Shown in pieces: positions 14,739 through 43,183 of a DNA stretch of 47,013 bases; position 1 is the stretch's first letter; every line of letters begins with the position of its first letter. The notes beneath the pieces were generated by a model. That model worked only from the letters and a program-made list of their open reading frames with translations. It did no database searches and had not been told where the DNA came from. The stretch is from Candidatus Sumerlaeia bacterium. GTDB taxonomy: Bacteria > Sumerlaeota > Sumerlaeia > SLMS01 > JAHLLQ01. The stretch is taken from contig JANQSL010000192.1 in assembly GCA_028284075.1 (NCBI GenBank), forward strand, positions 1-47,013, written 5' to 3'. Position numbers and translations under genes: made by a program.

Positions 14739-15023
14739 ATCAGGTCAGGTCAGGCGTTCACGGTGAGTATCAGTGTTTCCTTGAGACATGATTCGCTAGG
14801 GTACGAGCGGCGCCTTCGTCAAGGGAGGAAACCTGTATTTTGGGTGAATTGAGGGCTCAAAGAGCCAGGCTCCCCGGGCCATTGCAACAGGCAGATCGAT
14901 GTGCGCAGCGGGTCCGGCAACGGCTACACCCTGGATTTCAATCCAACAGCATGGATTACGGCATTCCGAGAGCTTTCCGCTTTCTTCGAGCGGGCAGTCC
15001 TGCAGGAGCGACCGGTTGGCTCT

Positions 15024-17331: not shown

Positions 17332-17353
17332 GGGTGACTTCACCACTGTGACT

Positions 17354-19102: not shown

Positions 19103-19104
19103 CA

Positions 19105-19800: not shown

Positions 19801-19807
19801 GGTCAGC

Positions 19808-20221: not shown

Positions 20222-20233
20222 TCGAACACCGTT

Positions 20234-20911
20234 ATGCGGCATCGAAAGCGGAGTCCGTTCCGGATCCTCGCAGACATTTTGCACCCTGTGATTGTCGTAC
20301 TCGGCGCGGCGGCATTCACTCTGCTGTGCTTTCTTGTGCTCCCTCTGATTCAGACTTTGAACAAGCCGCCGACAGCGGACTTGATGCTCCAGAACATGGA
20401 TGTGGCTCAGCTGGAACCTCCTCCCCCTCCACCCGAGGAGGAAGAGCCTGAAGAGGAGGAGCAGGAGGAGGAACCTCCACCGGAGCTGATGGAAGAAGCA
20501 CCACCTCTCGATTTGTCTCAGCTCGAACTTGCACTGAATCCCGGTGTGAGCGGCGGTTTTCTCCAGGGCGATTTCACCGTGAACCTGGTGAGCATGGCTT
20601 CCGGCGGGAAGGATGTGGAAGAGTTGTTTTCTCTGGCGGATCTCGACCAGAAGCCCCGGGTGATTTATCAACCCGGTCCGCGTGTCACTCCGGAAGTTCG
20701 CAAGTACGCGCCAGGTACCGTCTATCTGATCTTCATTGTTAACAGGGACGGACGCGTTGAGAATCCCATCGTTCAGAAATCGTCGAACCCGGTGTTCGAG
20801 AAGCCTGCTCTCGATACCATCAGAAAATGGAAGTTCGATCCTGGCAAGAGGAACGGACAGGCTGTCCGATTCCGTATGCGCGTACCGTTTACTTTTCCGG
20901 AAGGTCTGTAA
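20234..20911 (+). CDS. tonB: Energy transducer TonB (TM anchor, Pro/Glu-rich spacer, C-terminal TonB domain)
   Basis: PPPPPPEEEEPEEEEQEEEPPPE spacer; C-terminal YPxxA-like region ...KYAPGTVYLIFIVNRDGRVENPIVQKSSNPVFEKPALDTIRKWKFDPG. Confidence 0.85.
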   Translation: MRHRKRSPFRILADILHPVIVVLGAAAFTLLCFLVLPLIQTLNKPPTADLMLQNMDVAQLEPPPPPPEEEEPEEEEQEEEPPPELMEEAPPLDLSQLELALNPGVSGGFLQGDFTVNLVSMASGGKDVEELFSLADLDQKPRVIYQPGPRVTPEVRKYAPGTVYLIFIVNRDGRVENPIVQKSSNPVFEKPALDTIRKWKFDPGKRNGQAVRFRMRVPFTFPEGL

Positions 20912-20934
20912 TTCCGCAAGGAGCTGAATCACTC

Positions 20935-26882: not shown

Positions 26883-29854
26883 CGGTCCGCCCGCCTTGCC
26901 GCGGGTTATTCCTGGTGGTCTGGACACTGCTTGCTGCGGTGTCCTTCGCGCAGCAGGCGGGAGGTATTCGGGGAGTTCTCTATGACGACGACTTCGATGC
27001 TCCTCTTCCCGTGGCTCGTGTCACAATTGCGGAAACAGGTGAAGAAGTCACGAGTACGGACGAGGGAAACTATGTGTTTAATCAACTCCCTCCTGGAACC
27101 TATACACTGGTGTTTTCGAAGGATGGATACACTCGTCAGGTCAAAGCGGATGTCGTCGTTTCTCCCGGCCGGCTGACGGAGGTGAATGCCTCGCTGTCCG
27201 GTGATTTTGTGGAGATGGAGGAGTTTGTTGTTCAGGAGATTCAGTTCGCCGGCGGAACGGAAGCGGCTCTTCTGGAACTGCGATTCGAAAGCCCGGCACT
27301 CATGGATTCCATTAGTGCCGAGTTGATGAGCAAAGCCGGTGCAAGCGATGCCGCCGCGGCTCTCACGCTGGTTTCCGGAACAACAGTACAGGATGGAAAG
27401 TTTGCAGTCATCCGTGGCCTGCCGGATCGGTATGTGAACTCCCAGATGAACGGGGTCCGGCTTCCGACAGCCGATCCCGAGAAGCGTGCCGTTCAACTCG
27501 ATCAGTTTCCGGCTGCCGCGATCGAGAGCATTCAGGTCAGCAAGACTTTTACCCCGGACCAGCAGGGCGACGCATCCGGGGGTGCCGTGAACATTGTTCT
27601 CAAGGGCATACCGGACGAAAGAGTCATTCAGGCGGGCGTGTCGACCAGCTACAATGAGCAGTTTTCCTACGAGGATGATTTCCTGACCTCGAACGGAGGC
27701 GGTTTCGATGATTATTGGGGGTTTCGGGAATTCGACGAACAGCTCACCGGACAGAGCTGGGACGGTGCTGTGGGGACGACTCGCGACAGAGCTCCCATCG
27801 ACTACAAATGGAACATGGCTCTTGGTGACAGACTTGAACTGGACGACGGGGTGACCGTGGGTGGCTTCGGAAGCTTCTTTTACGAGCGGGACAGCTCATA
27901 CTTTGAAAACGGAACCAATGACAAGCTGTGGGTTGCCAAAAAAGGGGAGGGACTCACTCCACGTACAAGTCAGGGATCGCCAAGCCAGGACGAATTCCTG
28001 ACGTCTCTCTTCGATGTGACGGAGGGCAGTCAGCAGATTCGATGGGGCATGCTCGGGGCAGTCGGCATTGAGACCGAGAATCATTCGATTACCGCTTCGG
28101 GTCTGTTGACACACGATGCAGAGGACACCGCCTCGCTGCTTGAGGACACGCGCGGAAAAGAGTACTATTTTCCCGGTCATGATCCGGATGATCAGAGCAC
28201 ACCAGGTCATGGAGAGGATTCCCGGGATGCCGCCCCTTACCTGCGGCTGCAGACTCTTTTGTTTCGTGAGCGGGAGACGCGAACTCTGCAGCTGCACGGA
28301 GCCCACACCCTGCCGGATCCCGAGATGGAAATTTCGGGCTTTCTCAACACGCTGAGCCCCGAGGTGGACTGGACGGTTTCGAGAAGCTATTCGGAGCTGA
28401 AAGAGCCGGACAAACGTCAGTTTGGTTCACAATGGAAACCGGGGATTGATGAGTTCAATCTTCCTCCGACCTACACCGCATTCAAGCCCTCCGCAAACTT
28501 CACTCTCGGCAACCTTCAGCGGGTCGACAAGGAAGTCAAAGAGGAGAGCGATCAGTATTCCGTCAATGTCAAGCTTCCCTTCGAGCAGTGGACCGACAGT
28601 GAAGGCTTTCTCAAGTTCGGCATCTTCAAGGATGAAGTGGATCGCAGATACGATCAGGACTCCTTCAGCAACTTTTCGGATCCCAATGACGGCTATGTGG
28701 GGGACTGGGAGGACTATTGGAGTGATGTGTGGGAAGAGCAGGAGCATCTCATCACCGCGGCGAAAATCGATGTTAACTATACCGGCGAGCAGGAGATAGG
28801 AGCCTGGTACTGGATGGCGGATATTCCGCTGACATCCTGGTTTAACGTGATTGGCGGCTACCGGTATGAGGATACCGAGATTTCAATCATTAATGATCCG
28901 GAGGAAAACGCGACCTGGTTTCGGCCGGGAGAGACGAGTCCCTCTGAACTGGGTCCGGGAGACGCGGATGTCTTCTTCGAGCAGTCCGACACGCTTCCAT
29001 CCCTTGGATTCAGATTTCATCCGATTGATCTGATCACACTGCGCGGTAGTTACAGCGAGACCGTCGCACGTCAGACCTTCAGAGAATTAAGTCCGATCCT
29101 GCAGCAGGAGTTTCTCGGCTCTGACATTTTCATTGGTAACCCCGAGCTGCAGATGAGTGCGGTCAAGAACTACGACCTTCGCCTGGACCTGACACCGACG
29201 GATGACACTTTGATTTCCGTATCCTACTTCCTCAAGGAAATCGAAGACCCCATCGAGAACGTTCAACGGGTTGCAAACAACTTCGATTACACGACTCCCA
29301 TCAATTACCCCGAGGGCGAGTTGAGTGGCTGGGAATTGGAGATACGGCAGGAGATGGGTCGTATCTGGGGAGGTCTTGAAGGACTCATGATCGGCGGCAA
29401 CGCGACGTTTATTGATTCCGAAGTAACACTGCCGGAGGAGGAGGCTGCTCAGTTCTCTGATCCGGATGTCGACAAGCCCATCGAGACTCGGGACATGACG
29501 AATGCTCCCGAGCATCTGTACAACATTTACATGACCTACAAGATGGACAAGATCGGGTTAAGGGGAACCGAACTGGCGGTCTTCTACACGGTAAGAGGCG
29601 ACACGCTTGTCGCCGGTGCGGGCACCGACTTCTCACGTTTTGTTCCGAGTGTCTACGAAACGGAGTTTGAGACCCTGAATGCGAGCCTGACTCAGAAAAT
29701 CACGGACTATCTCAAGGTCAAGCTTCAGGTGAAGAACATTCTCGATCCTGAAATACAGACAGTCTACCGCTCTGAGCATCTTGACGGCGACACCGTGAAG
29801 ACGTCGTACAAAAAGGGGCGGGAGTATTCCCTTGGCCTGACAGCATCATTCTAG
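26879..29854 (+). CDS. TonB-dependent outer-membrane receptor with an N-terminal carboxypeptidase-regulatory-like domain
   Basis: Signal peptide; CarbopepD-reg-like block (EGNYVFNQLPPGTYTLVFSKDGY); plug domain (AVIRGLPDRYVNSQMNGVRLP); roughly 700-aa barrel ending ...LGLTASF with a terminal Phe. Confidence 0.85.
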   Translation: MTVRPPCRGLFLVVWTLLAAVSFAQQAGGIRGVLYDDDFDAPLPVARVTIAETGEEVTSTDEGNYVFNQLPPGTYTLVFSKDGYTRQVKADVVVSPGRLTEVNASLSGDFVEMEEFVVQEIQFAGGTEAALLELRFESPALMDSISAELMSKAGASDAAAALTLVSGTTVQDGKFAVIRGLPDRYVNSQMNGVRLPTADPEKRAVQLDQFPAAAIESIQVSKTFTPDQQGDASGGAVNIVLKGIPDERVIQAGVSTSYNEQFSYEDDFLTSNGGGFDDYWGFREFDEQLTGQSWDGAVGTTRDRAPIDYKWNMALGDRLELDDGVTVGGFGSFFYERDSSYFENGTNDKLWVAKKGEGLTPRTSQGSPSQDEFLTSLFDVTEGSQQIRWGMLGAVGIETENHSITASGLLTHDAEDTASLLEDTRGKEYYFPGHDPDDQSTPGHGEDSRDAAPYLRLQTLLFRERETRTLQLHGAHTLPDPEMEISGFLNTLSPEVDWTVSRSYSELKEPDKRQFGSQWKPGIDEFNLPPTYTAFKPSANFTLGNLQRVDKEVKEESDQYSVNVKLPFEQWTDSEGFLKFGIFKDEVDRRYDQDSFSNFSDPNDGYVGDWEDYWSDVWEEQEHLITAAKIDVNYTGEQEIGAWYWMADIPLTSWFNVIGGYRYEDTEISIINDPEENATWFRPGETSPSELGPGDADVFFEQSDTLPSLGFRFHPIDLITLRGSYSETVARQTFRELSPILQQEFLGSDIFIGNPELQMSAVKNYDLRLDLTPTDDTLISVSYFLKEIEDPIENVQRVANNFDYTTPINYPEGELSGWELEIRQEMGRIWGGLEGLMIGGNATFIDSEVTLPEEEAAQFSDPDVDKPIETRDMTNAPEHLYNIYMTYKMDKIGLRGTELAVFYTVRGDTLVAGAGTDFSRFVPSVYETEFETLNASLTQKITDYLKVKLQVKNILDPEIQTVYRSEHLDGDTVKTSYKKGREYSLGLTASF

Positions 29855-29862
29855 GCTCAGAG

Positions 29863-32292
29863 TTGACTCGAATGAAACCGTTGAACCTACCGCAGGTTGA
29901 TCATCGTGCACGCTCGACTCGCAATGCGACCGGTGCATTGGTATTTCTGCTTGTTCTGGGAGTTGCCCTTCTCTCGCCGCCCGGACTCCCGGCTCAGCAG
30001 ACGGGGCAGGGCCCGGTGCTTCAAAACATCGTTGTCCTCGGGCTTGATGAGACCGGCGAGGCCGTTGCGCGGGAAGCGGTTCCGATGCCTCTCGGCAAAC
30101 CCCTGACCCGGCAGGCGATGTTGCAACTTGAAGAGAGGCTGGTGAGTTCGAACCTTCCAACAGAGCATCTCAAAATCAGTCTTCAGCCAATCAACAGTGA
30201 TACGGTGGAGGACGGTGGAGATATTGGAAAACCATCGACGGGTGCGGAGCTGACTCTGGACTTTCGGCCACCCGCGCGAATTGCCTCCATCTCGGTATTT
30301 CCGCTTGTTCGCATTGATGCGAAAGAGCTGTGGGCGCCGATTCCGATTTATGCAGGCGACGGCTTCACAGAGGATTCGCTAAAGAAAATTCTCGATGCCA
30401 TCAGACTGACGGCGGAGGGCGCGGGGCATCGCGATGTTTCGATCATTCCACACCATCGCTGGCTCAGTGACCGAGAGGTCGAGCTCGGGTTCATCGTTGA
30501 GGGGTCGGTATCACCCCTTCTTCACAAGCTGCGCTTTGAAGATGCCGGATTCGGACATGCCTCAGCCATTCGCAAGTTTCTCAAGGAGGAAGAGGAAGAT
30601 CCGTTCTCCAAAGGCTCGCCGGTTACAGCTGCAAGGCTTGCAGAAGTTGAGACAATGGCGGCAAATCTCATGGTGTCCCAGGGCTATCTTGACGCGACAG
30701 CGCGTTTGCTGGAAACATCGGTTGCTCGAAAAGGCCTCGAGATCAGGTATGTCATTGACCGGGGGCCGCGCTACGAAGTTGGAGCCACATACATAACCGG
30801 AGCAAAAATACCGGATCCCGAATTCTGGAAGCCTGCGTCAAAGGGTCTCGAAGGCAGGAAACTGACCGGAAAACGAGTCAAGGAGTTGGAAGAGGCTCTT
30901 GAAAAGCGAGCACAGACCCGGGGCTATATGGCTCCGGAGGTGGAGCTCGATTTCACGTCCAACCGGATTGACAGAACTGTCGCCGTTGATGTCACGGTGA
31001 CGGAAGGGGAAAAGAGTGGAATGCGGCGCGTTTTGATCGAACGCCAACGCCCGGAGCGGGACTACGGAAAATCCTGGTATCATCGCGCCTTTGTTCCGCC
31101 GGTCGAGGAATCAATCATTCGCAAGCAGGTTCGTGTGCGGGAGGGCGAGGAATTGAACCGGAAACTGATCGAAGACGCGGAACGTCGTCTTTGGCGTCTG
31201 GGAACTTTTGACAGCGTGGAGGTTACCACAGCTGCGACCAGTGACACGCTGACTCGCGATGTTGTTGTCAAGGTTCGGGACAAGCGTACCGGCATTCTCG
31301 ATGTGGGACTGGGGGTTAACGATCAGATTGGTCCCGTCATTCGTGCAACTTTTTCCGAGGGTAATGTCGGCGGCCGTGCTGACCGCCTGACCTACTCGGG
31401 GTTTCTCGGTTTCAGCGAGACGGATTTTGGAGGAGAGGTTTCGTATCTGGATCGTTACTGGAAACTCGGGGAAAAGATTGTTGGGGAGCGGCGCGAGCCG
31501 TCCCTGATGTATTCCGCATTCTTAACGGAATATTCCTATCGTGTCTATTCGGAGCGTCGTACTGGCGGTCGGTTGCGGACGCGCTATCTGGTGGGTGACC
31601 CCATGGGGCCCTGGTCCAATTCCTGGGGAGCACGACTGGAGCATATCGACTACAATCCCTTTCGTGGCGAGGATGACTTTGAGGAGAGTTTCGAGTCCTA
31701 TCTGGCCGCAACACTCTCCTGGCACCTGACTCACGATACACGCGATCGCGGAGACGTGGATTCCACAAGCGGTCTGCTCTTTGATACCGGACTTGAGCTC
31801 GGTGACGCCGACGGAACGCTGATCAAGTGGACAAACCATGCTGAGTGGCACCGCCCCATTTCGCGTCACTGGGGATGGGTGAGTCGCGGTCAGTTTGGCC
31901 TGATGCCGTACGATGCTCAGGATGTCGGAATCAGTGACCGCTTTCAGTCCGGTGGTCTCGACACGATCAGAGGCTTCGAATATCGCGGTATCGGACCGGT
32001 GGATGACAGGAACGAGGATTTGCACATTGGTGGTTCAACGATGACCGCACTTCAGAACGAGATTCGCTACATTTACAACAAGAGTGTGGAGTTTCCCCTG
32101 TTTCTCGATGTGGGTACACTGGATGACAGCGCCTTGAAATTCTCCACACCGAACGCCACCGCCGGCCTTGGTATTCGAATGAAGCTCCCTGGAACCGAAC
32201 AAAGGGCCTATCTCTACTACGGGGAGCAGCTTCTCAGTGAAGACACTGACGAACAGCGAAGTCTGCATTTCGGCCTGACGTTCGGGCTTTAG
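29863..32292 (+). CDS. Omp85-family outer-membrane protein (BamA/TamA-like) with N-terminal POTRA repeats
   Basis: C-terminal barrel motifs RFQSGGLDTIRGFEYRGIGP, TALQNEIRY, FLDVGTL typical of the D15/Omp85 surface antigen; about 400 aa of POTRA-like repeats; 9 nt downstream of the TBDR. Confidence 0.8.
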   Translation: MTRMKPLNLPQVDHRARSTRNATGALVFLLVLGVALLSPPGLPAQQTGQGPVLQNIVVLGLDETGEAVAREAVPMPLGKPLTRQAMLQLEERLVSSNLPTEHLKISLQPINSDTVEDGGDIGKPSTGAELTLDFRPPARIASISVFPLVRIDAKELWAPIPIYAGDGFTEDSLKKILDAIRLTAEGAGHRDVSIIPHHRWLSDREVELGFIVEGSVSPLLHKLRFEDAGFGHASAIRKFLKEEEEDPFSKGSPVTAARLAEVETMAANLMVSQGYLDATARLLETSVARKGLEIRYVIDRGPRYEVGATYITGAKIPDPEFWKPASKGLEGRKLTGKRVKELEEALEKRAQTRGYMAPEVELDFTSNRIDRTVAVDVTVTEGEKSGMRRVLIERQRPERDYGKSWYHRAFVPPVEESIIRKQVRVREGEELNRKLIEDAERRLWRLGTFDSVEVTTAATSDTLTRDVVVKVRDKRTGILDVGLGVNDQIGPVIRATFSEGNVGGRADRLTYSGFLGFSETDFGGEVSYLDRYWKLGEKIVGERREPSLMYSAFLTEYSYRVYSERRTGGRLRTRYLVGDPMGPWSNSWGARLEHIDYNPFRGEDDFEESFESYLAATLSWHLTHDTRDRGDVDSTSGLLFDTGLELGDADGTLIKWTNHAEWHRPISRHWGWVSRGQFGLMPYDAQDVGISDRFQSGGLDTIRGFEYRGIGPVDDRNEDLHIGGSTMTALQNEIRYIYNKSVEFPLFLDVGTLDDSALKFSTPNATAGLGIRMKLPGTEQRAYLYYGEQLLSEDTDEQRSLHFGLTFGL

Positions 32293-32299
32293 GGCTCTC

Positions 32300-33475
32300 T
32301 CAGAGTATGTTGTTGAAGCCGGCACCGCCGGATGGTGTCGCGACGTGTAAACCGGCACTGAGGCCTGTTTTTCTCCGGTACTCACCGCCAATGTGCGCTT
32401 CTGCTGATCGAGTGTGTTCAGGATCAACAAGTGCAATTGCGCTTCCTCCGAATCCCGCACCCGTCATTCGACAACCGTAGACACCCGGAGTTGAGGCTGC
32501 GATTTCGACAAGAGTGTCGAGTTCCGTGCAGGAAACCTCGAAATCATTTCTCAGACTCTCGTGCGATTCGAGAAGAAGGCTTCCCGCGCGGTCCATATTG
32601 CTTCGGGACAAAGCCTGCTGGAAGTCGAAAACGCGCCGGTTCTCTCGATGGTTGTGGCGTACGCGTCTGAGAATGTCTCCGGGTAGGTTCTCTGCGTATT
32701 GATCGACGACCTCGGCGGGAACATGGCGCAGGGTGGGGAAACTCTCCCCGGCTTTTTCTCTCAGTATGTGGAGTCCTTCCTCACATTGCTTCCGACGGGA
32801 ATTATACTCCGAGTCTGCAAGGCCACGCTTTTTTCCTGAATCAATGACAAGAATGTTCGCGAGCGAGGAATCGAAGGAAACCAGTTCATGCTCGAGGTTG
32901 TGACAGTCGAGCTTCAATACATGGCCATGTTGTCCGAAGATGGATGTGTATTGGTCCATAACTCCACAGCTGACTCCGACAAGAGGTCCGTTTTCCGCAG
33001 CCTGAGAGAGAAGAGCAAGTTCACGGTCTTTCATGCTCAACTTGCGGATTCCATTGACGAGAACGGCTGTACACACCGTGAAGGCGGCGGAAGATGAGAG
33101 GCCGGCTCCATGAGGAATATCCCCGTCGATCACGGCACGAAGACCCGGTATGTGGCAGCCTTTTTTCTGAAACTGATCAATAACGGCCAGGAAGTAGCTT
33201 TGCCAGGTCCCCATCCCCGGAGAATCCGTAAGCCGGTCCGCTCGGGTTGTCCATTTTTCCTGAAACGTGATACTGTGGAGCTCAAACTCATCGCTGCCTG
33301 AGGGGCCCGCCGCAATGCAGAGGTTTCGGTCGATGGCTGCGGGCATTGCAAAGCCACCGTTGTAGTCGGTATGTTCACCTATCAGGTTAATTCGCCCGGG
33401 GGCGCATGCGATCCACTGAGGATCGGTGCGCCAGATTTCCGCGTATTGCTGCCGGAGAGTGGCCTGCTCAATCAC
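32300..33475 (-). CDS. galK: Galactokinase
   Basis: Galactokinase signature [17 protein letters not shown] and GHMP ATP-site [10 protein letters not shown]. Confidence 0.85.
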
Positions 33476-34533
33476 TTCCCAGGCTTTCCTGCGGAATGTT
33501 TGTAGTGTATCTCGCTTTGTTCCCGCAACATGCCCGCAGCGGTTTCAGGAGTCAGATCCCGTTGCGGCATTGCCAGCATCTCGAAACCAACCATGAATTT
33601 TTGCACCGTGGACGACCGAAGGAGTGGTGGATAGTAGTGTGCGTGCAGACACCAGTGGTCCGTGTTCCCGCTCTTGCAGGGAGCTGAATGCCATCCCATC
33701 GTATAAGGAAATGAGACCTGGAAGAGATTATCGTAACGAGTCAGCAGCCGTTTTGTCAAATCGGCAAGTGCGTCCTGATCGGACTCACTCAGTTCCGTGA
33801 GTGAAGGAATGGTGCGGCGGGGGAGGAGAAGCGTTTCGAAAGGCCATTTTGCCCACCAGGGAACCAGAGCGACCCATGCATCATTCTCGCAAACCACACG
33901 CTCTCCTCGGGAGGTTTCAATAGCCAGGTAGTCGGAGAGCAGACATGAGCCTTTTGCCTTAAACCATTCATATTGATGCCGATCTTCACGCTCGACCTCG
34001 AAGGGAACGCATCCCGTTGCCCATATCTGACCGTGTGGATGCGGGTTGCTGCATCCCATGATTGCACCCTTGTTTTCAAAAATCTGGACATAGTGAATAT
34101 TCTCCCGAGAGGAGAGGTTGAGATATTCCAGGATCCATGTTTCAACAACATGGCGGATCGCCCGTTCATCCATTTCCGCCAGCGTGATATCATGGCGCGG
34201 GGAAAAACAAACAACACGGCAAATGCCTGATTCCGGTTCAGTTCCCAGCAACTCATCGTGAATGACGTTTTTGTTCGGTTCGTCGGGAAGCAGAGCCGCA
34301 AAGTCGTTCGTAAAGACATACGTGTTGTCATAGACCGGATTGATGGCGCCGTTCGCACGTTCGTTTCCGGGACAGAGATAGCACTTCTCGTCGTATTTCG
34401 GGCGCGAGTCCTCCTGTGGTATCTCGACCTTGCCCTGCCAGGGTCGCTTCATTCGATGAGGGCTGACAAGAACGGATTCTCCCGTCAGCGGGTTATACCG
34501 TCGATGAGGAACGTCATTAAGATCGATGGTCAT
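33472..34533 (-). CDS. galT: Galactose-1-phosphate uridylyltransferase
   Basis: Zn-site CYLCPGNE and active-site HPHGQIWA (His-Pro-His) motifs; overlaps the galK start by 4 nt. Confidence 0.85.
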
Positions 34534-34591
34534 GGTGGTGCAAATATCGACAGAGCCCGTTTCGGTGCAATGTCAGAGCGAGCCCCTCTTC

Positions 34592-35515
34592 TCAAGCAAC
34601 CTTTGACCACATGTCCCGAAGCGCGCGTGCCGAGTTTTGCAAACCCATTCGCTCTTTCGGCCAAAGATCGATTTCCACGTGCTCGATCGCTCCTTCGCGT
34701 CCAATCACGGTCGGAACACTGAAGCAGACGTCACGGACCCCATACGCGCCGCTTTGGAGTGTTGAAACCGGGAGCAAAGTCCTCTTGTTGAGCGCGATGG
34801 CATCAATGACTTCACGAATGGCGACAGCGACCGCCCAGCCTGCGCCACCCTTGCGTTTGATCACCTCCGCGCCGCTCCCCTTTGTCCGTTTATAGAGGCG
34901 TTCCTGTAGAGTGGCGTTCATTCCCGGCACACTTGTCAGTGGCAGGCCGTTGACGCTGGCGCTGGACCAGACTGGCACCATCGTGTCCCCGTGTTCACCC
35001 AGAAGAAGGGCCTTCACCTGTGTCGCCGCAAGGCTCAGTTCCTCCGCAATCAGTGACGAGAAACGGCATGTGTCGAGCATGGTTCCGAGTCCGATGACTT
35101 GTTGCCACGGCAATCCCAGTACTCGCACAGCCTGCATGGTCAGAATATCCACGGGATTGGAGACCACGAAGACAATCGCGTCTCGTTTCATGCCGGCGGA
35201 CTTGATGCTCTCCATGATTTGGTTGAAAAGGCCGAGATTGCGATTAATCAGGTCGAGTCTCGATTCATCAGGCTTTCGACGAAGACCCGCCGTGACCAGA
35301 AAAACGTCACTGTCGGCTCCATCGGCGTAGTTTCCGACATGGATGCGCTGATCGGCCGTCATGGCCGCACCGTGAAGCAGATCAAGCGCCTCACCTTCCG
35401 CAGTCTCCCGGTTGGCGTCTATAATCTGAATGTCGGAGACGATTCCGCCACACTGAAGAGCGAAGGCGGCACACGCTCCAACTCGTCCGCCTCCGCCGAT
35501 AATCGAAACCTTCAT
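34592..35515 (-). CDS. LDH/MDH-family NAD-dependent 2-hydroxyacid dehydrogenase (Arg at the substrate-specificity position suggests malate-dehydrogenase-like)
   Basis: IIGGGGRVG Rossmann motif, AGLRRKPDESRLDL loop (R rather than the Q of LDHs), catalytic GEHGDT. Confidence 0.8.
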   Translation of the reverse strand: MKVSIIGGGGRVGACAAFALQCGGIVSDIQIIDANRETAEGEALDLLHGAAMTADQRIHVGNYADGADSDVFLVTAGLRRKPDESRLDLINRNLGLFNQIMESIKSAGMKRDAIVFVVSNPVDILTMQAVRVLGLPWQQVIGLGTMLDTCRFSSLIAEELSLAATQVKALLLGEHGDTMVPVWSSASVNGLPLTSVPGMNATLQERLYKRTKGSGAEVIKRKGGAGWAVAVAIREVIDAIALNKRTLLPVSTLQSGAYGVRDVCFSVPTVIGREGAIEHVEIDLWPKERMGLQNSARALRDMWSKVA

Positions 35516-35542
35516 GATTTCCGCCGCTCCTTCGAGATTGCG

Positions 35543-36634
35543 TTACGAGGGTTCAATCACCCGCTGCATGATCAAGTCCGTGATTTGCTGTATCAGTTCT
35601 TCGGTCGATTCGTCCCGGTCTTTTGCAACCGGCGCCTTCTTTGACTGGCACTGGCACTTCGGATCCGGCGGTGACGCACAAATGACCCCGGGCCTCCACT
35701 GGGCATCATCCTGCAATGCGATCTCCGAGATGTCCTTTCCGATTCTCGGGTCATGGACGCCCATGGTTTGCTTGATGTTCAGAAGCTCCTTCATTTGGCC
35801 GGATGTAAAGCGATTGGGCGGTGCCCCCAGTTGCGACGTAATGGCAATGGTTCGGCAGTAGGCTTCAAGGATTTCAATCTTGAGGTATGCATCCTCGACC
35901 GAGACATCGCTCCACGCCACTACCCCGTGGTTGGCCATGAGGATTGTGCTGTGATCCGAGCTGTGACTCGCAACCTTCCTGGCGATTTCGATCGTTCCGG
36001 GTGTTTCGTAGCCGGCGATCGGAACTTCCCCGACAAAGAGTTCGAATTCAGGAAGGATCTTGTTTGGCGGCTGGACACCGGATGCCGCAAAAGCGGTCGC
36101 ATAGGGAGGATGACAGTGCACGCACGCCACTGCCCGTGGCTGGGCCTTCATGATTTCCAGATGCATCAGGATTTCGCTGGTGGGTTTTTTTTCACCCGCC
36201 TTTCGATTTCCATCGAGATCCACCATACAGAGATCGGCAGGCTTCATGAAACCCTTGGAAATACGAGTTGGCGTGCAGAGAACAAGATTCCTGTCCACGC
36301 GGATGGAAATGTTGCCGCCATTACCGTCGAGATAGTCGCGAGCCCACATCCGCCGTCCCACTTCGCAGATCTGCTCTTTGCGGTGCGCGTTTTCCGGGGA
36401 GTTGAACAGCGACTCAATGTCCATGCCTGAATTGTTCGAGACGTGGCCGGATGGGTTTTCTGTTTGTGCGGATGGTTGCAGAGCTGATGTTGTGGAACGC
36501 GCGGTCATCCTGCCGAGTTCCGACAACAAGTCCTGAGCCGCGGGTGTTATGATCGCGTCAGCCGGGATGGCGGAAATATCCGTCCCGTTTTTTATCAGCG
36601 TCTCCACGTCCTTGACAGTAATAACCTGTCTCAT
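35543..36634 (-). CDS. Class II (FucA/RhaD-type) aldolase with a roughly 85-aa N-terminal extension and a C-terminal amphipathic encapsulation peptide
   Basis: Core GNGGNISIRV...CVHCHPPYATAFA...MANHGVVAW class II aldolase/adducin motifs; C-terminal EELIQQITDLIMQRVI helix after a Pro/Cys-rich linker. Confidence 0.8.
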   Translation of the reverse strand: MRQVITVKDVETLIKNGTDISAIPADAIITPAAQDLLSELGRMTARSTTSALQPSAQTENPSGHVSNNSGMDIESLFNSPENAHRKEQICEVGRRMWARDYLDGNGGNISIRVDRNLVLCTPTRISKGFMKPADLCMVDLDGNRKAGEKKPTSEILMHLEIMKAQPRAVACVHCHPPYATAFAASGVQPPNKILPEFELFVGEVPIAGYETPGTIEIARKVASHSSDHSTILMANHGVVAWSDVSVEDAYLKIEILEAYCRTIAITSQLGAPPNRFTSGQMKELLNIKQTMGVHDPRIGKDISEIALQDDAQWRPGVICASPPDPKCQCQSKKAPVAKDRDESTEELIQQITDLIMQRVIEPS

Positions 36635-36933
36635 GTTTGGGGCCTGTAATCCAGTGTGTCGATGAGTGCACAGTTATAGGCGTCCACCGGAGTGGGTTTT
36701 TCAAAGGGCATTGCCGCCTCACGCCCTTCGACATAACCGATGATGTTGCCATTCCAGCCTCCCAGGTCGTCATAAACGACAGGCGTTGGAAGGCTGCCGG
36801 TCGGCACCTCTTCTTTGTTTCGCGAAGTGAGGGACTCCTGATCCATGGGGCTGACAATCAACCACCGTCCTCCTTCGACTTGCGGGAGACAGGCGTTCAG
36901 AGTGACTCGCCCTACAACCTGTCCGAGCTTCAC
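36631..36933 (-). CDS. BMC vertex (pentamer) protein, EutN/CcmL/PduN family, copy 3
   Basis: GTG start at 36931-36933 overlaps the TGA of the upstream BMC-P (GTGA); product (M)KLGQVVGRVTLNAC... fits the BMC-P N-terminal consensus. The ORF-track start at 36960 would overlap by 31 nt. Confidence 0.7.
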   Translation of the reverse strand: MKLGQVVGRVTLNACLPQVEGGRWLIVSPMDQESLTSRNKEEVPTGSLPTPVVYDDLGGWNGNIIGYVEGREAAMPFEKPTPVDAYNCALIDTLDYRPQT

Positions 36934-37223
36934 AGAGAACCTCTTTCGGAGGAGCTGCACGAATCGCCTTCATCAACGATACCGACGACCATGTTACGAA
37001 CCGGGCTGTACTCATCCTTGACCTGGTTTCGCGTTGCCGCGCCGTCAGTTGAAACAATGACCGTTGAGTGAAGGCCTGCGCCCCAGGGATCGATGGCAAT
37101 CCACGGGACACCGTATGCCACTCCTTTCTCATCCACCGGCTGGCAGATGAGCATCTTCTGGCCCTTCAGGCTGGGATGTTTGTGAGTGGAAACGGCAGTT
37201 CCTTCCACGCGTGCCAGAATCAT
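36930..37223 (-). CDS. BMC vertex (pentamer) protein, EutN/CcmL/PduN family, copy 2
   Basis: MILARVEGTAVSTHKHPSLKGQKMLICQP...DPWGAGLHSTVIVSTDGAA, the classic BMC-P pattern. Confidence 0.75.
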   Translation of the reverse strand: MILARVEGTAVSTHKHPSLKGQKMLICQPVDEKGVAYGVPWIAIDPWGAGLHSTVIVSTDGAATRNQVKDEYSPVRNMVVGIVDEGDSCSSSERGSL

Positions 37224-38683
37224 CAGTAAATCCTTAGATTGTCCACCATGGTACAGCGGCGGAGTCGCGTGAAGGTTCGTGCTCTTGTAACGCCTTCGCC
37301 GGTTGGAGTGGCGATAGTGAAGCCGGAGTAACCCTCACCGCCGGCCGCGAGCCCCGCCACACAGGGGCCGTTCTTGATGAAGAGTGTCGTGTCCATTGCC
37401 CGGGCCATGGCGGTCATATGGTTCACGTTGTGCGTGTGAATAATCGCTGTGTGTCTGTAACCGTGCTCCGCGCGCCGCGCAGCCTTGATGCCTTCATTCA
37501 CGTCCCGTACCCGGACCACGGGGATAAACGGCATCATCTGTTCTTCGATGACAAAGGGATGATCCTCTGACGTTTCCGCGAAGAGCATGGGGCAGTCATC
37601 CGCCACACTTGTTCCGGCTGTTCTGGCCAGAACCGACGCGTCGGATCCAACATAATCCTTGTTTACATGAGCCCGCCCGCAGCCACCTCCCTTTCCCGTT
37701 TCAAAGGTAAAGGCTTCTTCAGTGAGTCTGTCGAGTTGGGAAGAACTCAAGTCAGCTGCGCCATGCTTCTTCATCGCCGACATGAAGCGCTCGAACATTG
37801 AGTCGACGACAAAAACTTCTTTTTCCCCGATGCACAGAAGGTTGTTGTCGTAACCACCGCCTGTAATCACGGAGTTCGCGGCCCGGTCAGGACAGCAATC
37901 CTCCGCAACCAGAACGGGAGGATTGCCAGGACCGGCGCAAATGGCGCGCTTCCCGGTCTTCATGGCGGCCTTCACGACACCAGGACCGCCGGTTACAACA
38001 ACGAGCCGGGTATGCTCATTTGTGCAAATACCATCAAAGGACTCAAGTGTGGGGTGTTCGATGATACAGATGATGTTTTCAACGCCGGTTTCCCGGGAGA
38101 TTGCCTCATTATAAGTTCGAGCGGCTTCCACAGCACACTTTACCGCGCCCGGGTGCGCATTGAACACGACCGCGTTTCCCGCTGCCACCATGTTGATGGC
38201 GTTTGCCGTGAGCGTTGGAATGGAGTGGGTTGCGGGAGTCACTGCGGCAATTACACCGAAAGGGCAGCGTTCCTCCAGTGTGATACCGTGATCGCCGCTG
38301 AACCCCTCCGGTTGCAGATCTTCAACGCCAGGTATTCCCGGCATCATCAGGAGCTTCTCGATCTTGTGATCAATGCGGCCGATCTTGGTTTCATCCAGTT
38401 CCAGCTTCCCCCATTCCTTCGCTTTTTCCACCGGAATGCGCTTAAGTATCTCGACGATCTTTCGCCGGGTTTCCATTCCCTTCTCCTGAAGCTGGAGGAA
38501 GGCGTCATGAGCTGCCTTGCAGGCTTCGGCGGGATCCTGAAACACACCGTGACGATTATCGGAACGTCGAGTCCTGGGAGCAGGGTTCACACCGCCGGCG
38601 GCTTTCCCGTGCCCGAGGCGGCCGAGAACCTCGTCGACCACGTCTCGAATCAGCGTCTCGTTCAATGTGCCTGATTCTGCCAT
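37223..38683 (-). CDS. CoA-acylating aldehyde dehydrogenase (PduP/EutE-like) with an N-terminal encapsulation peptide
   Basis: ALDH-fold blocks (GVIAAVTPATHSIPT, VVVTGGPGVVKAAM); N-terminal amphipathic helix LIRDVVDEVLGRL followed by a linker. Confidence 0.85.
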   Translation of the reverse strand: MAESGTLNETLIRDVVDEVLGRLGHGKAAGGVNPAPRTRRSDNRHGVFQDPAEACKAAHDAFLQLQEKGMETRRKIVEILKRIPVEKAKEWGKLELDETKIGRIDHKIEKLLMMPGIPGVEDLQPEGFSGDHGITLEERCPFGVIAAVTPATHSIPTLTANAINMVAAGNAVVFNAHPGAVKCAVEAARTYNEAISRETGVENIICIIEHPTLESFDGICTNEHTRLVVVTGGPGVVKAAMKTGKRAICAGPGNPPVLVAEDCCPDRAANSVITGGGYDNNLLCIGEKEVFVVDSMFERFMSAMKKHGAADLSSSQLDRLTEEAFTFETGKGGGCGRAHVNKDYVGSDASVLARTAGTSVADDCPMLFAETSEDHPFVIEEQMMPFIPVVRVRDVNEGIKAARRAEHGYRHTAIIHTHNVNHMTAMARAMDTTLFIKNGPCVAGLAAGGEGYSGFTIATPTGEGVTRARTFTRLRRCTMVDNLRIY

Positions 38684-38710
38684 TCGGAATACCTTCTGAC
38701 TTCAGGTGTG

Positions 38711-39028
38711 TCAGTGATCGTTGCGTGAATCGAAAATTCGTTCGCCAAGTACATCCACCGAATCGACGATTCCAATAATGACCGCATCCACCGGTGCGCC
38801 TTTCAGGCCCGGCGCGAGCCGCGCTGAGCTTCCCTGGCTGAAGAGCACGAGTTCACCTTCGCCCGCGCCAAGGGAATCCACGGCAACGATGGTGTTCTGC
38901 CCCTGCTTGAAGACCGACGGGTTCTCCTGGTCCACGAGCATGGGCCGGAGGATCAGCAGCTTCCGTCCGGAAATGCCATCGTCCTTTTTTGTGGCGACCA
39001 CCTGGCCTTCCACGCGGGCGAGAAACAT
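38711..39028 (-). CDS. BMC vertex (pentamer) protein, EutN/CcmL/PduN family, copy 1
   Basis: MFLARVEGQVVATKKDDGISGRKLLILRP...DSLGAGEGELVLFSQGSSAR; ATG at 39026-39028. Confidence 0.75.
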   Translation of the reverse strand: MFLARVEGQVVATKKDDGISGRKLLILRPMLVDQENPSVFKQGQNTIVAVDSLGAGEGELVLFSQGSSARLAPGLKGAPVDAVIIGIVDSVDVLGERIFDSRNDH

Positions 39029-39029
39029 C

Positions 39030-39332
39030 TTATTTGCTCCGCCCCGCGGGCTTCGCCGGCAGAATCCTGGACACGTCGTCATGCGGACGAGGAATCACGT
39101 GAACGCTGACAAGTTCTCCACCCATGACCTTCACGGCCTGCGCTCCGGCATCCACGGCCGCTTTTGCCGCGGCAACGTCGCCGAGAACGGAGACGCTGAC
39201 GAGTGCGCCACCGACCTGCTTCATGGGGCCCGCCAGAGTCACGTTTGCCGCCTTGAGCATTGCATCCGTGGCCTCCACCAGCGCCACGAGGCCGCGTGTT
39301 TCAATCAAACCAATTGCCTGTTGAGCTGCCAT
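39030..39332 (-). CDS. BMC-H shell protein (Pfam00936 single BMC domain, PduA/EutM-like)
   Basis: AIGLIETRGLVALVEATDAMLKAANVTLAG...GGALVSVSVLGDVAAAKAAVDAG. Confidence 0.85.
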   Translation of the reverse strand: MAAQQAIGLIETRGLVALVEATDAMLKAANVTLAGPMKQVGGALVSVSVLGDVAAAKAAVDAGAQAVKVMGGELVSVHVIPRPHDDVSRILPAKPAGRSK

Positions 39333-39371
39333 TTTCCGTTTCTCCTTGAATACTCGTGTCGTGGTCCGTTC

Positions 39372-39662
39372 TCAGCCCTTCAGGAACGAGCCCATTCCTT
39401 CCAGTTCATCATGCGGTCGTGGAATAACACGAACCCCGACCACCTGGCCAATGCGTGCACCGGCTTCGGCGCCGGCATCCGTCGCTGCTTTGACTGCTGC
39501 AACGTCGCCCGAAAAAAACGCGGTGACGAAACCGCTGCCGATCTTTTCCCAGCCCGTCATGGTGACATCCGCCGCTTTCAATGCGGCATCGGAGGCCTCC
39601 AGCAGGGAGCAAAGACCCTTCATCTCAATCATGCCGAGAGCTTCTCTCTTTGCAGGTGCCAT
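39372..39662 (-). CDS. BMC-H shell protein (single BMC domain)
   Basis: ALGMIEMKGLCSLLEASDAALKAADVTMTG...VTAFFSGDVAAVKAATDAG. Confidence 0.85.
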   Translation of the reverse strand: MAPAKREALGMIEMKGLCSLLEASDAALKAADVTMTGWEKIGSGFVTAFFSGDVAAVKAATDAGAEAGARIGQVVGVRVIPRPHDELEGMGSFLKG

Positions 39663-39719
39663 GATTCCTTATCCTTCGTATGGTTGACTCAAACGCGGTC
39701 GTGGGTTGGAGGTTGATTT

Positions 39720-40397
39720 TCAGCCCTTAACGAGTTCCACCGGGGTGTCCGGTTTCAAATCGCAGGCGTTGCCTTCGTCCGTATCGATATGCACCTCGAG
39801 GCGGAACGAGGGATCGACGCGTACCATCAGTTTCTCAAGGTTGACGGCGCACGGCCCGCCAATCCTGAGAGTCATTTCGTCGAGGTGCCGAACTCCGTAA
39901 AAGTCCGCATCTTCCGGTGCCATGTGCACGTGACGCACTGCCCGGATGACGCCTTCCGTCATCTCGAAAAAGCCATGAGGTCCTTGGAGCATGCAGCCGG
40001 GCGTGCCATCGACATCTCCTGACATGCGCGCTGGAATCTTGAATCCCAGCATGACGGCATCGGAAAATGACAATTCGATCTGGTTCAATTTCCGGCATGG
40101 GCCAAGGATGCGCAGATTCGAGATGACACGATTGCGGGGGCCGATCAGTGCAACCGTTTCCTCCGCCGCAAACTGTCCTTCCTGATACAGCCATTTCATT
40201 GGCGTCAGCCGATGCCCGGGTCCGAACAGTCGCTCGACCGCTTCCTGCGTCAGATGGCAGTGGCGGGCACTGATGTTGACCACGAGCGGGCTGGGTGCCC
40301 TCGCGACTTCAGGTGTCGGCCGACCAAGACGCTCGTAAACGACCTGGCGTACAAGGTGTTCGACTTCGACTCGATGCATGGACTTTGAAACCATCAT
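39720..40397 (-). CDS. pduL: PduL-type phosphotransacylase with an N-terminal encapsulation peptide
   Basis: Two PduL repeats with His motifs (VNISARHCHLT; VRHVHMAPEDA); N-terminal VEVEHLVRQVVYERLG helix. Confidence 0.8.
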   Translation of the reverse strand: MMVSKSMHRVEVEHLVRQVVYERLGRPTPEVARAPSPLVVNISARHCHLTQEAVERLFGPGHRLTPMKWLYQEGQFAAEETVALIGPRNRVISNLRILGPCRKLNQIELSFSDAVMLGFKIPARMSGDVDGTPGCMLQGPHGFFEMTEGVIRAVRHVHMAPEDADFYGVRHLDEMTLRIGGPCAVNLEKLMVRVDPSFRLEVHIDTDEGNACDLKPDTPVELVKG

Positions 40398-40426
40398 GGC
40401 ACAGTGGTGCTCGACGTTGTCGGCTG

Positions 40427-40699
40427 CTACTTCATGAACTGAGTGATCAGTTCCGTATGAGGGCGGGGGATCATATGCGATCCGACCAGCTCACCAACGC
40501 GAGCTGCCGCATCCGCTCCGGCATCAACCGCCGCCTTCACGCTGCCGACGTCACCTTGCACCAGGACCGTAATAAATCCGCCGCCAATCGGTACCGTCTT
40601 TACCAGTTCAACGTTCGCGGCTTTGACCATCGCATCGCTGGCCTCAACGCTGCCGACGAAGCCTTTCGTCTCCACCATTCCGAGTGCTGCACTGCTCAT
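40427..40699 (-). CDS. BMC-H shell protein (single BMC domain); first gene of the BMC operon
   Basis: [29 protein letters not shown]...[21 protein letters not shown]; ATG 40697-40699 is preceded by GGAGG. The upstream in-frame extension to 40828 is non-homologous. Confidence 0.85.
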
Positions 40700-40930
40700 C
40701 CGGGAAACCTCCGTGATGACATTCCCGCCCCACTGCGGAGCGAGGCGCCGGACCGAAACAACTGAGTGGTCCGAAAGGACTGAGGAGCCACAGACCCTTG
40801 AAATCAAGCATATTGTGGATATAAACACACAAAAACACAGATTGTTCGCAGAAAATCAAAGTGAAAGAATCGCCGTTTTACGATCCTTTGTAACCATTAA
40901 GTCATTTGAAATCAATGTGATGAGTTGGCT
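40700..40930 (-). promoter_or_regulatory. AT-rich 230-bp intergenic region upstream of the BMC operon (putative promoter/operator region)
   Basis: Marked local drop in GC (e.g. catattgtggatataaacacacaaaaacacagattg...aaatcaatgtgatgag) between the P-loop NTPase stop and the first BMC-H gene; contains TGTG/CACA-rich repeats. Confidence 0.3.
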
Positions 40931-41596
40931 TTATGAGTGAGAAACGGCTGCCGTCCGTTCACAGGCGTCATACAGGCGGAGGATGGCTTCGCGGCCGTTT
41001 CCTTCACAAGAGGCCAGAAGGTCTGGCGTACTGTATCCCGGCAAATCTCTGATCACGCCTTGTTGCGGCACCGGGAGTTGAGCGAGTCGCTCCTCCACAA
41101 TCTGAGCGAATGCGGTTGGGCAGATGGACACGTCAATATGAGCACCGTGGTTTAGAGTGGCATGCGTCGTGAAAACAAGTCCTCTCTCCAGAATCCGTGC
41201 AGTAAACCGCAGAACGGATAGTTGTCGGCGAGGGAGGACCTCCGCTCCGTCCAGCAGGAGAACGTCGCATCGTACGAGAGTGGCAAGCCAGTCGGAGGGG
41301 AGTGTTGAATTTTCTTCATGACAGAAAATCCGCCCTGTTGACAGGCCTTCAAGACAAAGGTGCTTGCCGATTGTGGCAAGAAGCGTCGATTTCCCCGCAC
41401 CGTGTGGGCCACACAGCTCGCCGCTCCATCCATGGTCCTCGAGCTGATTCAGGACGTATTCCCTCCCGAGGTTGGCGGAGAAGACATAGTCGCAGTATCC
41501 GGGACTCAGGTCGCGCACGTTGAACGGGTTGCGTGACAGTCCGCCACGGATTCTTGACCTGCGGCTGTCTTCCAACTCCGCAACGTGGATTGTCAT
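40931..41596 (-). CDS. P-loop NTPase, Hda/DnaA-like AAA+ architecture (Walker A GPHGAGKST, Walker B DVLLLDGAE)
   Basis: ATG 41594-41596 overlaps the stop of the upstream ORF (ATGA). Motif order (box-like NPFNVRD... Walker A ... hhhhD) resembles Hda; no search done. Confidence 0.55.
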   Translation of the reverse strand: MTIHVAELEDSRRSRIRGGLSRNPFNVRDLSPGYCDYVFSANLGREYVLNQLEDHGWSGELCGPHGAGKSTLLATIGKHLCLEGLSTGRIFCHEENSTLPSDWLATLVRCDVLLLDGAEVLPRRQLSVLRFTARILERGLVFTTHATLNHGAHIDVSICPTAFAQIVEERLAQLPVPQQGVIRDLPGYSTPDLLASCEGNGREAILRLYDACERTAAVSHS

Positions 41597-42012
41597 GGTG
41601 GAGGCGGCTCCTGTGGCAGCGATGCGTTGCGATGAGAGGGGCGGATGGTGATTTCCTTTTCCGCCACGGCTTCCTTTTCTCCCTTCGCTTTGACGTACAC
41701 GCCAACCTGCCACTTGATCTTCAACTTCACGCCCTGATAAGTCCATGGCATCATGGGAAGAGAAAACGCAAACCGCCTTTCAAAACGGGGCGAAACGTCT
41801 TCATCCTTTTCCAGAAGCTTCTCGACTCGCGCTGCCTCGCGGTTTTCATCACCCCGTCCCTCCGTATGCCAGACAAGAGCGGCATCAGCGTACTCACACT
41901 CCCACGATGCCGGGGCGGAGATTGTGACACGGCCGCTGAGACGGTCTCCGGGAGAGAAGTCAGGACATGATTCGTCCAGTTCGATTTGAATATCAAAACC
42001 CGCGTTCTTCAT
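41593..42012 (-). CDS. Hypothetical 139-aa protein with an arrestin-N/beta-sandwich-like motif pattern (RFERRFAFSLP...P)
   Basis: Translationally coupled on both sides (ATGA overlaps); no signal peptide; Pro-rich C-terminus. Confidence 0.45.
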   Translation of the reverse strand: MKNAGFDIQIELDESCPDFSPGDRLSGRVTISAPASWECEYADAALVWHTEGRGDENREAARVEKLLEKDEDVSPRFERRFAFSLPMMPWTYQGVKLKIKWQVGVYVKAKGEKEAVAEKEITIRPSHRNASLPQEPPPP

Positions 42013-42962: not shown

Positions 42963-43183
42963 TCACCTGGTCCCGTTGCACGATTTCATTAAAGCCAATG
43001 AACGACGGCCTACACAGTCAACCCCGTTGAGTTCACAAAAGGTACGTCCGGCACCCTCATGTTATTCAGGCAACGAAACGGAATGGCATCCTCCTCAACT
43101 GTCCGTTCGGTCAGTTGGCGGGTGGGGTCAGCCGCCCGACAATGTATCTCGCTCGATACAATACAAAGGAAGATACAACTCAA

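Follow-up and report, generated by a model that had tools for sequence, protein, structure and literature searches.

A probable Planctomycetes-Verrucomicrobia-type metabolosome locus, rearranged and trimmed, with galT and galK at its end

Positions 32300 to 40699 of contig JANQSL010000192.1 from a Candidatus Sumerlaeia bacterium carry twelve tightly packed open reading frames (ORFs). The whole contig of 47,013 nt, which stems from a MAG or metagenome, is referred to here as the window, and all coordinates are positions on it. The ORFs lie on the minus strand, running from 40699 to 32300, and each has a strong profile match in Pfam or NCBIfam. In the order of transcription they encode a bacterial microcompartment (BMC) shell protein of the BMC-H type, a PduL-type phosphotransacylase, two more BMC-H proteins, a BMC-P protein, a CoA-acylating aldehyde dehydrogenase (ALDH), two more BMC-P proteins, a class II aldolase, a dehydrogenase of the lactate/malate dehydrogenase (LDH/MDH) family, and the products of galT and galK. 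The region very probably encodes a metabolosome of the Planctomycetes-Verrucomicrobia microcompartment (PVM) type, in a rearranged and trimmed copy of the canonical locus to which galT and galK are juxtaposed. All twelve ORFs are intact and of full length, with conserved catalytic residues and encapsulation peptides. The gene set given in the first-pass annotation of this DNA, namely three BMC-H, three BMC-P, PduL, acylating ALDH and class II aldolase, was recovered completely by the profile searches.

The first gene encodes a BMC-H protein of 90 aa (40427..40699; PF00936, E 3e-28). It is preceded by an intergenic region of 231 nt (40700..40930, minus strand), which is probably the promoter region of the BMC operon. 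Its GGAGG ribosome-binding site stands 8 nt ahead of the start codon ATG (40699). A hairpin of 10 bp with a U-rich tail is located at 40889-40864, behind the stop codon of an upstream gene for a 271-aa protein. Scans of the window with Rfam and for tRNAs were empty, and thus no riboswitch precedes the operon. The PduL-type phosphotransacylase, the equivalent of PvmB, follows at 39720..40397 (PF06130, 1.4e-68; NCBIfam PRK15070, 234 bits against a cutoff of 209). The other two BMC-H genes are found at 39372..39662 (PF00936, E 3e-26) and 39030..39332 (PF00936, E 9e-23), and the first BMC-P gene at 38711..39028 (PF03319, E 8.5e-28). The ALDH, equivalent to PvmJ, is encoded at 37223..38683 (NCBIfam PRK15398, 574 bits against a cutoff of 403). 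The remaining BMC-P genes occupy 36930..37223 (PF03319, E 1.6e-24) and 36631..36933 (PF03319, E 3e-11); the latter encodes 100 aa and has a GTG start, which overlaps the stop of the preceding BMC-P gene by 4 nt. The signature enzyme of the locus, a FucA-like class II aldolase of 363 aa, is encoded at 35543..36634 (PF00596, 1.6e-46). A spacer of 27 nt with an AAGGAG ribosome-binding site separates it from the gene of the LDH/MDH-family NAD dehydrogenase (34592..35515; Ldh_1_N and Ldh_1_C domains). Then follow a spacer of 58 nt (34534..34591, minus strand), a class I galactose-1-phosphate uridylyltransferase gene, galT (33472..34533), and the galactokinase gene galK with a GTG start (32300..33475). 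Horizontal insertion of the operon was considered and rejected: its GC content, 0.53-0.59, is the same as that of the remaining window.

The locus was compared with gene contexts from a 10.5-Mb genome (L005), from long metagenome contigs (L006, L007) and from 80 loci fetched with the aldolase alignment (L010-L089). Frequencies downstream of the aldolase refer to 34 independent PVM loci with at least 2.5 kb of sequence on that side, and upstream frequencies to 26 loci with at least 6.5 kb. The canonical order, found in L005 and in several dozen metagenome loci, consists of a divergent DeoR regulator gene followed by PduL, two BMC-H, acetate kinase (AckA), BMC-H, BMC-P, ALDH, two BMC-P, the aldolase, in part of the loci an LDH/MDH gene, and a protein of about 420 aa, designated here U420. 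If the three canonical BMC-H paralogs are called Ha, Hb and Hc, and the BMC-P paralogs Pa, Pb and Pc, the order in the window reads Ha-PduL-Hb-Hc-Pa-ALDH-Pb-Pc-aldolase-dehydrogenase, because each shell protein matches one canonical paralog best. The BMC-H at 40427-40699 is 76% identical to Ha of L005 and L006 and 49-54% identical to Hb and Hc, the one at 39372-39662 has 74-75% identity to Hb, and the one at 39030-39332 has 73-77% identity to Hc. The BMC-P proteins encoded at 38711-39028, 36930-37223 and 36631-36933 are 72%, 60% and, over 100 aa, 53% identical to Pa, Pb and Pc of L005, respectively. The block from Pa through ALDH, Pb, Pc and the aldolase to the dehydrogenase is identical in order to the PVM locus. 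At the other end, PduL and Ha are swapped: Ha is normally located directly behind PduL, whereas here it stands ahead of it, so that PduL lies between Ha and Hb, an arrangement that the first-pass annotation had missed. The canonical Hc comes after the acetate kinase; here it comes after Hb with a gap of 39 nt that holds no remnant of the kinase.

These comparisons bear out the earlier assignment to the PVM type, since each of the three BMC-H and three BMC-P proteins matches a single canonical paralog and the synteny agrees. With the PVM locus of Planctopirus limnophila and the Verrucomicrobia (cluster 4.1 of Axen 2014), a type for which Sutter 2021 lists 285 representatives, the window shares the signature aldolase with a C-terminal encapsulation peptide, ALDH and PduL with N-terminal peptides, the set of three BMC-H and three BMC-P without a tandem-domain shell protein (BMC-T), and an LDH/MDH-family gene directly behind the aldolase. 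The window proteins are just 45-77% identical to the sampled PVM proteins. Loci of the PVM-like and GRM5 types, found in Firmicutes, Solibacter and Melioribacter, have in common with it a homologous class II aldolase as the signature enzyme, with a C-terminal encapsulation peptide. An assignment to either was ruled out because the shell stoichiometry, the orthology and the synteny are those of PVM proper: the window holds the 3:3 PVM shell set, in 1:1 orthology and in PVM gene order.

Of five features that the first-pass annotation had flagged as unusual, three belong to the definition or to the normal make-up of a PVM locus. The absence of BMC-T is real, as no further BMC-domain gene was detected in the window at E<=1, but none of the canonical PVM loci in the sample has a BMC-T gene either. 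The LDH/MDH-family gene is indeed located 27 nt behind the aldolase; this is not unusual, since such a gene is present in 15 of the 34 loci and its role in NADH recycling has already been predicted (PMC4207490). Axen 2014 (PMC4207490) regarded the LDH/MDH-pfam gene behind the aldolase as the predicted core substitute of an alcohol dehydrogenase and the recycler of NAD+, since among the other genes it alone could regenerate NAD+. Judged by its sequence, the window gene is this canonical PVM dehydrogenase and not a local novelty, and an iron-containing alcohol dehydrogenase (iron-ADH) is therefore not expected. None was found in the window (tblastn at E<=1; Pfam scans of large ORFs), which agrees with the absence noted earlier, but the lack is canonical, the LDH/MDH gene being in its place.

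The true deviations from the canonical locus are the missing acetate kinase, DeoR regulator and U420, the PduL/Ha swap, and the appended galT-galK. Axen 2014 (PMC4207490) listed DeoR and acetate kinase as ancillary PVM genes; both are absent from the locus, so that it lacks the acetate (lactate) kinase PvmG and the divergent regulator. Searches of the entire 47-kb window (tblastn at E<=1; Pfam scans of all large ORFs) revealed neither an acetate kinase nor a DeoR homolog, and U420 was found neither in the locus nor elsewhere on the contig. The lack of the kinase had rightly been called unusual, as AckA is present in 25 of the 26 informative loci; the same is true of DeoR (25/26), and U420 occurs in 24 of 34. 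A search of the flanks for BMC-T and acetate kinase had been suggested in the first-pass annotation; extended over the window, it found neither, and a BMC-T, ackA or DeoR gene hidden elsewhere in the window was thus considered and ruled out. The rest of the window also contains no isomerase or kinase for fucose or rhamnose, and neither galE nor galM is present in it. Since the contig lacks the kinase, DeoR and U420, regulation and the step that yields ATP have to come from other parts of the genome or are absent; the missing genes may be located on other contigs. Two other PVM loci, L051 and L063, are kinase-less as well, and there, as in the window, PduL and the three canonical BMC-H genes lead straight to BMC-P and ALDH. 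They differ from the window in that PduL stays first, two extra BMC-H genes are present, and no LDH/MDH gene or galT-galK follows the aldolase.

U420 ends the canonical loci (L005:12062-13324, plus strand; the same position in L006, L010 and 21 others). It has no match in Pfam, NCBIfam or the PDB sequences, and is apparently an uncharacterised integral PVM component. Directly behind U420, and in the same direction, two of the PVM loci have a citrate synthase gene (L054:11649-12965 and L075:13133-14557, both on the plus strand), which hints at a link to oxaloacetate and tricarboxylic acid cycle metabolism in some lineages.

Encapsulation peptides had been placed at the N-termini of ALDH and PduL and at the C-terminus of the aldolase, and this placement was found to be right by their conservation in 25 ALDHs, 32 PduLs and 18 aldolases. 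The ALDH peptide, LNETLIRDVVDEVLGRLG (~38612-38665), is conserved in 25 PVM ALDHs and is followed by a variable linker rich in Pro and Ala; the enzyme as a whole is 56-66% identical to 47 PVM ALDHs. The PduL peptide, HRVEVEHLVRQVVYERLGR (~40320-40376), is conserved in 32 PVM PduLs. The aldolase carries an amphipathic encapsulation helix at residues 342-360 (nt 35555-35611), located after a disordered linker, as judged from the alignment and an AlphaFold (AF2) model. This arrangement agrees with the published pattern (PMC4594438), in which the aldolase peptide is C-terminal, that of the phosphotransacylase N-terminal, and that of the ALDH at either end. The dehydrogenase, which begins at the Rossmann fold and finishes with the last helix, and the GalT and GalK proteins have no extension resembling an encapsulation peptide, a point that had been overlooked.

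PduL scores 146 bits against the rPduL structure 5cuo. The motif WLYQEGQFAA is common to the window protein and 32 PVM PduLs, and its counterpart in rPduL is AMKQPGQFAA. According to the literature, Gln77 of the R. palustris PduL is replaced by Tyr or Phe in the pvm PduLs. By residue count on 5cuo, Gln77 is the Q of GQF (GQFAAEE), which is retained in the window protein and in 29 of the 32 PVM PduLs. By this count the PVM-specific aromatic residue would be the Tyr of WLYQEGQF (window residues ~64-75), which aligns with Lys73, so that the numbering appears to differ from that in the literature.

The aldolase starts with an N-terminal mini-domain (residues 1-47, nt 36494-36634); its core (73-290) lies between two disordered linkers, the second of which leads to the C-terminal helix. 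This architecture is kept in 18 aligned homologs, in which E154, H173, H175 and H236 are invariant, and the model superimposes on the FucA and YgbL structures with a Foldseek TM of ~0.85. A homolog search yielded 4143 proteins, mostly with the same architecture of ~350 aa. The nearest named matches of the aldolase and of GalT come from several phyla at 55-65% identity. The closest relatives of the aldolase (58-68% identity) are encoded on contigs that end before the region 3' of the dehydrogenase, and a genome-contig scan with the single aldolase sequence gave one match only, a distant alphaproteobacterial one.

The mini-domain, also missed in the first-pass annotation, is a conserved element of ~45 aa in the PVM aldolases (the window and homologs P0003-P0096, alignment A1), present besides the published C-terminal encapsulation peptide. 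Its consensus is MKxIISAxDVEELLRNGGDxxSLPxDAILTPSARDLLR. It is modelled by AlphaFold with a pLDDT of ~92 in a beta-alpha-beta-alpha pattern, with the disordered linker behind it, and it has no match in Pfam, NCBIfam or the PDB sequences. The survey of encapsulation peptides (PMC4594438) credits these aldolases with a C-terminal extension only. Some close relatives of the aldolase (56-58% identity; L003:10001-11104 of GCA_020444065.1, L004 and L009) have the C-terminal extension and no BMC genes nearby. The P0005 aldolase has the N-terminal domain too, with 0 BMC genes within 10 kb on a contig of 1.26 Mb; P0004 lacks most of that domain, and its contig is just 3.7 kb long. One of these lone aldolases is encoded beside a PfkB kinase, and another beside an SSF transporter. 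The corresponding shell genes may lie elsewhere, or these may be orphan aldolases that bear an encapsulation peptide.

By homology to the characterised system of Planctopirus limnophila, the following pathway can be proposed. Inside a shell of three BMC-H and three BMC-P proteins, the peptide-tagged aldolase would cleave L-fuculose-1-phosphate or L-rhamnulose-1-phosphate to dihydroxyacetone phosphate and L-lactaldehyde. The peptide-tagged acylating ALDH would convert the lactaldehyde to lactyl-CoA with formation of NADH, and the peptide-tagged PduL would then convert lactyl-CoA to lactyl-phosphate, by which CoA would be recycled. The LDH/MDH-family dehydrogenase is presumed to re-oxidise NADH, its substrate being uncertain. 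The last step, from lactyl-phosphate to lactate and ATP, would require the kinase that is absent from this contig.

With 24 orthologs from PVM loci the dehydrogenase shares 65-77% identity. Its best PDB match is the LDH of T. maritima (216 bits), with MDHs at ~200 bits. In NCBIfam it falls below both LDH cutoffs (282 against 339 and 279 against 304) and below both MDH cutoffs (280 against 283 and 210 against 352). The substrate loop, AGLRRKPDESRLDL (residues 76-89), is present in 20 of 20 PVM orthologs (L005-L066) with only four single-residue substitutions, none of them in its two arginines, which are invariant. The second of these, R80, corresponds to position 102 and is aligned with Gln102 of LDH (PQK in 1a5z) and with R81 of the E. 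coli MDH (ARKPGMDR). R86, D148, R151 and H175 correspond to R109, D168, R171 and H195, and this catalytic set is invariant. In the LDH/MDH superfamily R171 binds the substrate carboxylate. Wilks et al. are said to have shown in 1988 that a change of Gln102 to Arg turns an LDH to MDH specificity, and Arg102 reportedly selects oxaloacetate over pyruvate. The PVM enzyme thus has in common with the LDH-like malate dehydrogenases and the L-lactate dehydrogenases the Rossmann and catalytic domains and R109, D168, R171 and H195, and differs from them in the MDH-like Arg102 within a unique RRKPDESR loop and in having KGGAGW instead of KGATHY. The first-pass annotation had held that strict malate specificity would speak against the proposed NADH-recycling role; the sequence leans to the malate side by its Arg at position 102, which would favour substrates of the MDH type.

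The galT and galK genes are an ordinary, translationally coupled Leloir pair in the slot where canonical loci end. GalT passes the NCBIfam cutoffs (PRK11720, 539 bits against 448, and 480 against 102) and has the HPH motif in its translation; GalK passes TIGR00131 (295 bits against 227) and has the galactokinase signature, GEHTDYNGG. Both genes therefore satisfy curated equivalog cutoffs for the Leloir pair. They had been described as co-directional with gaps of 4-60 nt. The orientation and the 58-nt spacer are as described, but the 4 nt are an overlap of the galT stop with the galK GTG start (GTGA) and not a gap. The closest relatives, L090 among them, have the same overlap of 4 nt. The nearest galT homologs, at 64-65% identity, come from several phyla. 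In three contexts inspected, the galT-galK relatives form a free-standing pair behind their own divergent intergenic region with no BMC genes nearby, whereas the window pair is located 58 nt behind the BMC operon. At its 3' end galK faces a convergent Omp85 gene, with 7 nt between the two stops. No galT or galK gene was found downstream of the aldolase in the 34 PVM loci, and the position of the window pair behind a PVM operon is unique in this sample; the 3' flanks of the other loci vary and contain GH116, citrate synthase, esterase or hybrid kinase genes, or genes on the opposite strand. The pair was most likely placed behind the operon by rearrangement, as a juxtaposition. The proposal that galT-galK are joined to the BMC operon thus stands as far as adjacency is concerned, but a functional or transcriptional link finds no support beyond it.

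Three other interpretations have to be weighed against a PVM metabolosome with a dehydrogenase presumed to recycle NAD+ and with galT-galK as a probable chance neighbour. One of them concerns the dehydrogenase of all PVM loci, which might be a 2-oxo-acid dehydrogenase of the malate/oxaloacetate or lactate/pyruvate type and not a lactaldehyde reductase; NAD+ may then be recycled via an organic-acid couple, or the L-lactate product may be converted in the cytosol outside the shell. This is a tentative proposal, with the balance of probability against it. It is suggested by the invariant R109, D168, R171 and H195 with the carboxylate-binding R171, by Arg102 in 20 of 20 orthologs, where the E. coli MDH has R81 and the T. 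maritima LDH has Gln, and by scores just under both the LDH (282 against 339) and the MDH (280 against 283) cutoffs. The enzyme is also devoid of an encapsulation peptide, the role of lactaldehyde reductase was argued by elimination only (Axen 2014, PMC4207490), and the literature searches brought up no biochemical assay of a PVM LDH/MDH-family enzyme. On the other hand, it is the sole candidate for an NAD+-regenerating enzyme in the locus (PMC4207490), and the published pathway schemes list 1,2-propanediol among the products (PMC8857213). The alcohol dehydrogenases of other BMCs lack encapsulation peptides as well and are thought to piggyback (PMC4594438), a prediction of specificity from residues can fail, and the gene, carried by only 15 of 34 loci, may therefore be accessory. 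A second interpretation, somewhat less likely still, places galT-galK inside the BMC transcription unit, so that the catabolism of D-galactose by the Leloir pathway and of L-fucose or L-rhamnose by the PVM pathway would be co-expressed from one promoter, for instance in the use of sulfated polysaccharides that contain both fucose and galactose. The genes are co-directional, and fucose-containing sulfated polysaccharides do hold galactose too (PMC8857213). The 58-nt spacer at 34534-34591 was scanned for promoters, terminators and folds and showed neither a terminator-like hairpin nor a consensus promoter, nor a Shine-Dalgarno sequence before galT; it folds no better than shuffled sequence (z-score -1.1). 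A terminator or promoter at this place, which the first-pass annotation had regarded as speaking against a joint transcript, is thus missing as far as a sequence scan can tell. The absence of a terminator-like hairpin is weak evidence of co-transcription, and read-through from the BMC promoter into galT-galK is possible. The usual DeoR is missing from the locus, and its regulation must therefore differ from that of canonical loci. Against co-expression stand the absence of galT and galK downstream in all 34 independent PVM loci, the free-standing position of the closest galT-galK pairs behind their own divergent intergenic regions, and the variable PVM 3' flanks with their unrelated genes. In addition, galT has no Shine-Dalgarno sequence, neither gene product has an encapsulation peptide, and simple promoter and terminator scans are uninformative for this phylum.

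It is also conceivable, at a very low probability, that what is left here is a remnant, decaying or non-functional, which yields no working organelle. Three common components are missing, AckA and DeoR, each of which is present in 25 of 26 loci, and U420, and the gene order is disturbed. A remnant would hardly be expected to consist of twelve intact, full-length ORFs with conserved catalytic residues and encapsulation peptides, to retain all six shell paralogs, and to keep tight gene spacing with overlaps of 4 nt; furthermore, the kinase-less loci L051 and L063 exist, and the missing genes may lie on other contigs. The assignment to a rearranged and trimmed PVM metabolosome is preferred to this and to the two preceding interpretations, and several observations weigh against it. 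The aldolase shares just 45-60% identity with those of other PVM loci. As ackA is missing, this contig does not encode the whole canonical pathway. The substrate, the encapsulation and the operon structure of the locus would be as proposed if they follow its homologs. An active site of the 2-oxo-acid type with Arg102 appears odd for an enzyme that should reduce lactaldehyde and fits poorly with that reaction. Finally, there is no terminator-like signal between the dehydrogenase and galT, which leaves a chance neighbourhood of separately expressed genes as a probable reading and not a demonstrated one.

Microcompartments of the PVM type have been described well and abound in environmental data, as the 4143 homologs with the aldolase architecture from one search illustrate, and as a discovery the locus adds little. 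It extends the PVM type to a poorly sampled lineage, and would indicate that the PVM core can do without the kinase, the regulator and U420 in the locus and tolerates a swap of PduL and a shell gene. The galT-galK adjacency matters only if transcripts show true co-regulation. The comparison further exposes an untested assumption of the published PVM model, whose NAD+-recycling "alcohol dehydrogenase" has an MDH-like active site of the 2-oxo-acid type; if it is a 2-oxo-acid enzyme, the textbook PVM scheme needs revision.

Several neighbouring genes were observed in the window. Directly upstream of the operon and co-directional with it is the gene of the 271-aa protein (40931-41746, minus strand), which has a P-loop, GPHGAGKST, and weak AAA/Hda-like similarity. 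The other PVM loci that were compared lack such a protein, and the hairpin behind its gene is terminator-like. On the other side, convergent with galK, a TonB-dependent receptor of the CarboxypepD_reg type and an Omp85/POTRA protein are encoded at 26879-32292 (plus strand). They form a pair that is conserved in L093:6999-12403, the sole detectable relative; the two genes overlap in the window and are ~2 nt apart in L093. The closest Omp85 homolog, that of L093, is 48% identical, and no BMC or gal genes are located beside that pair. A DUF3450-ExbB-ExbB-ExbD-TonB-TPR cluster is found behind the pair in L093 and ahead of it in the window (16549-22365). At 12004-16226 (minus strand) the genes of three CBS-domain paralogs stand in tandem, all of the CNNM/CorC (Mg/Co efflux-like) type; two have CorC_HlyC and CBS domains and one has CNNM and CBS domains. 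A Gly/Asp-rich protein of 677 aa (43115-45148, plus strand) has a C-terminal Peptidase_S74 (endosialidase chaperone) domain, as found in phage tail fibres and self-cleaving surface fibres.

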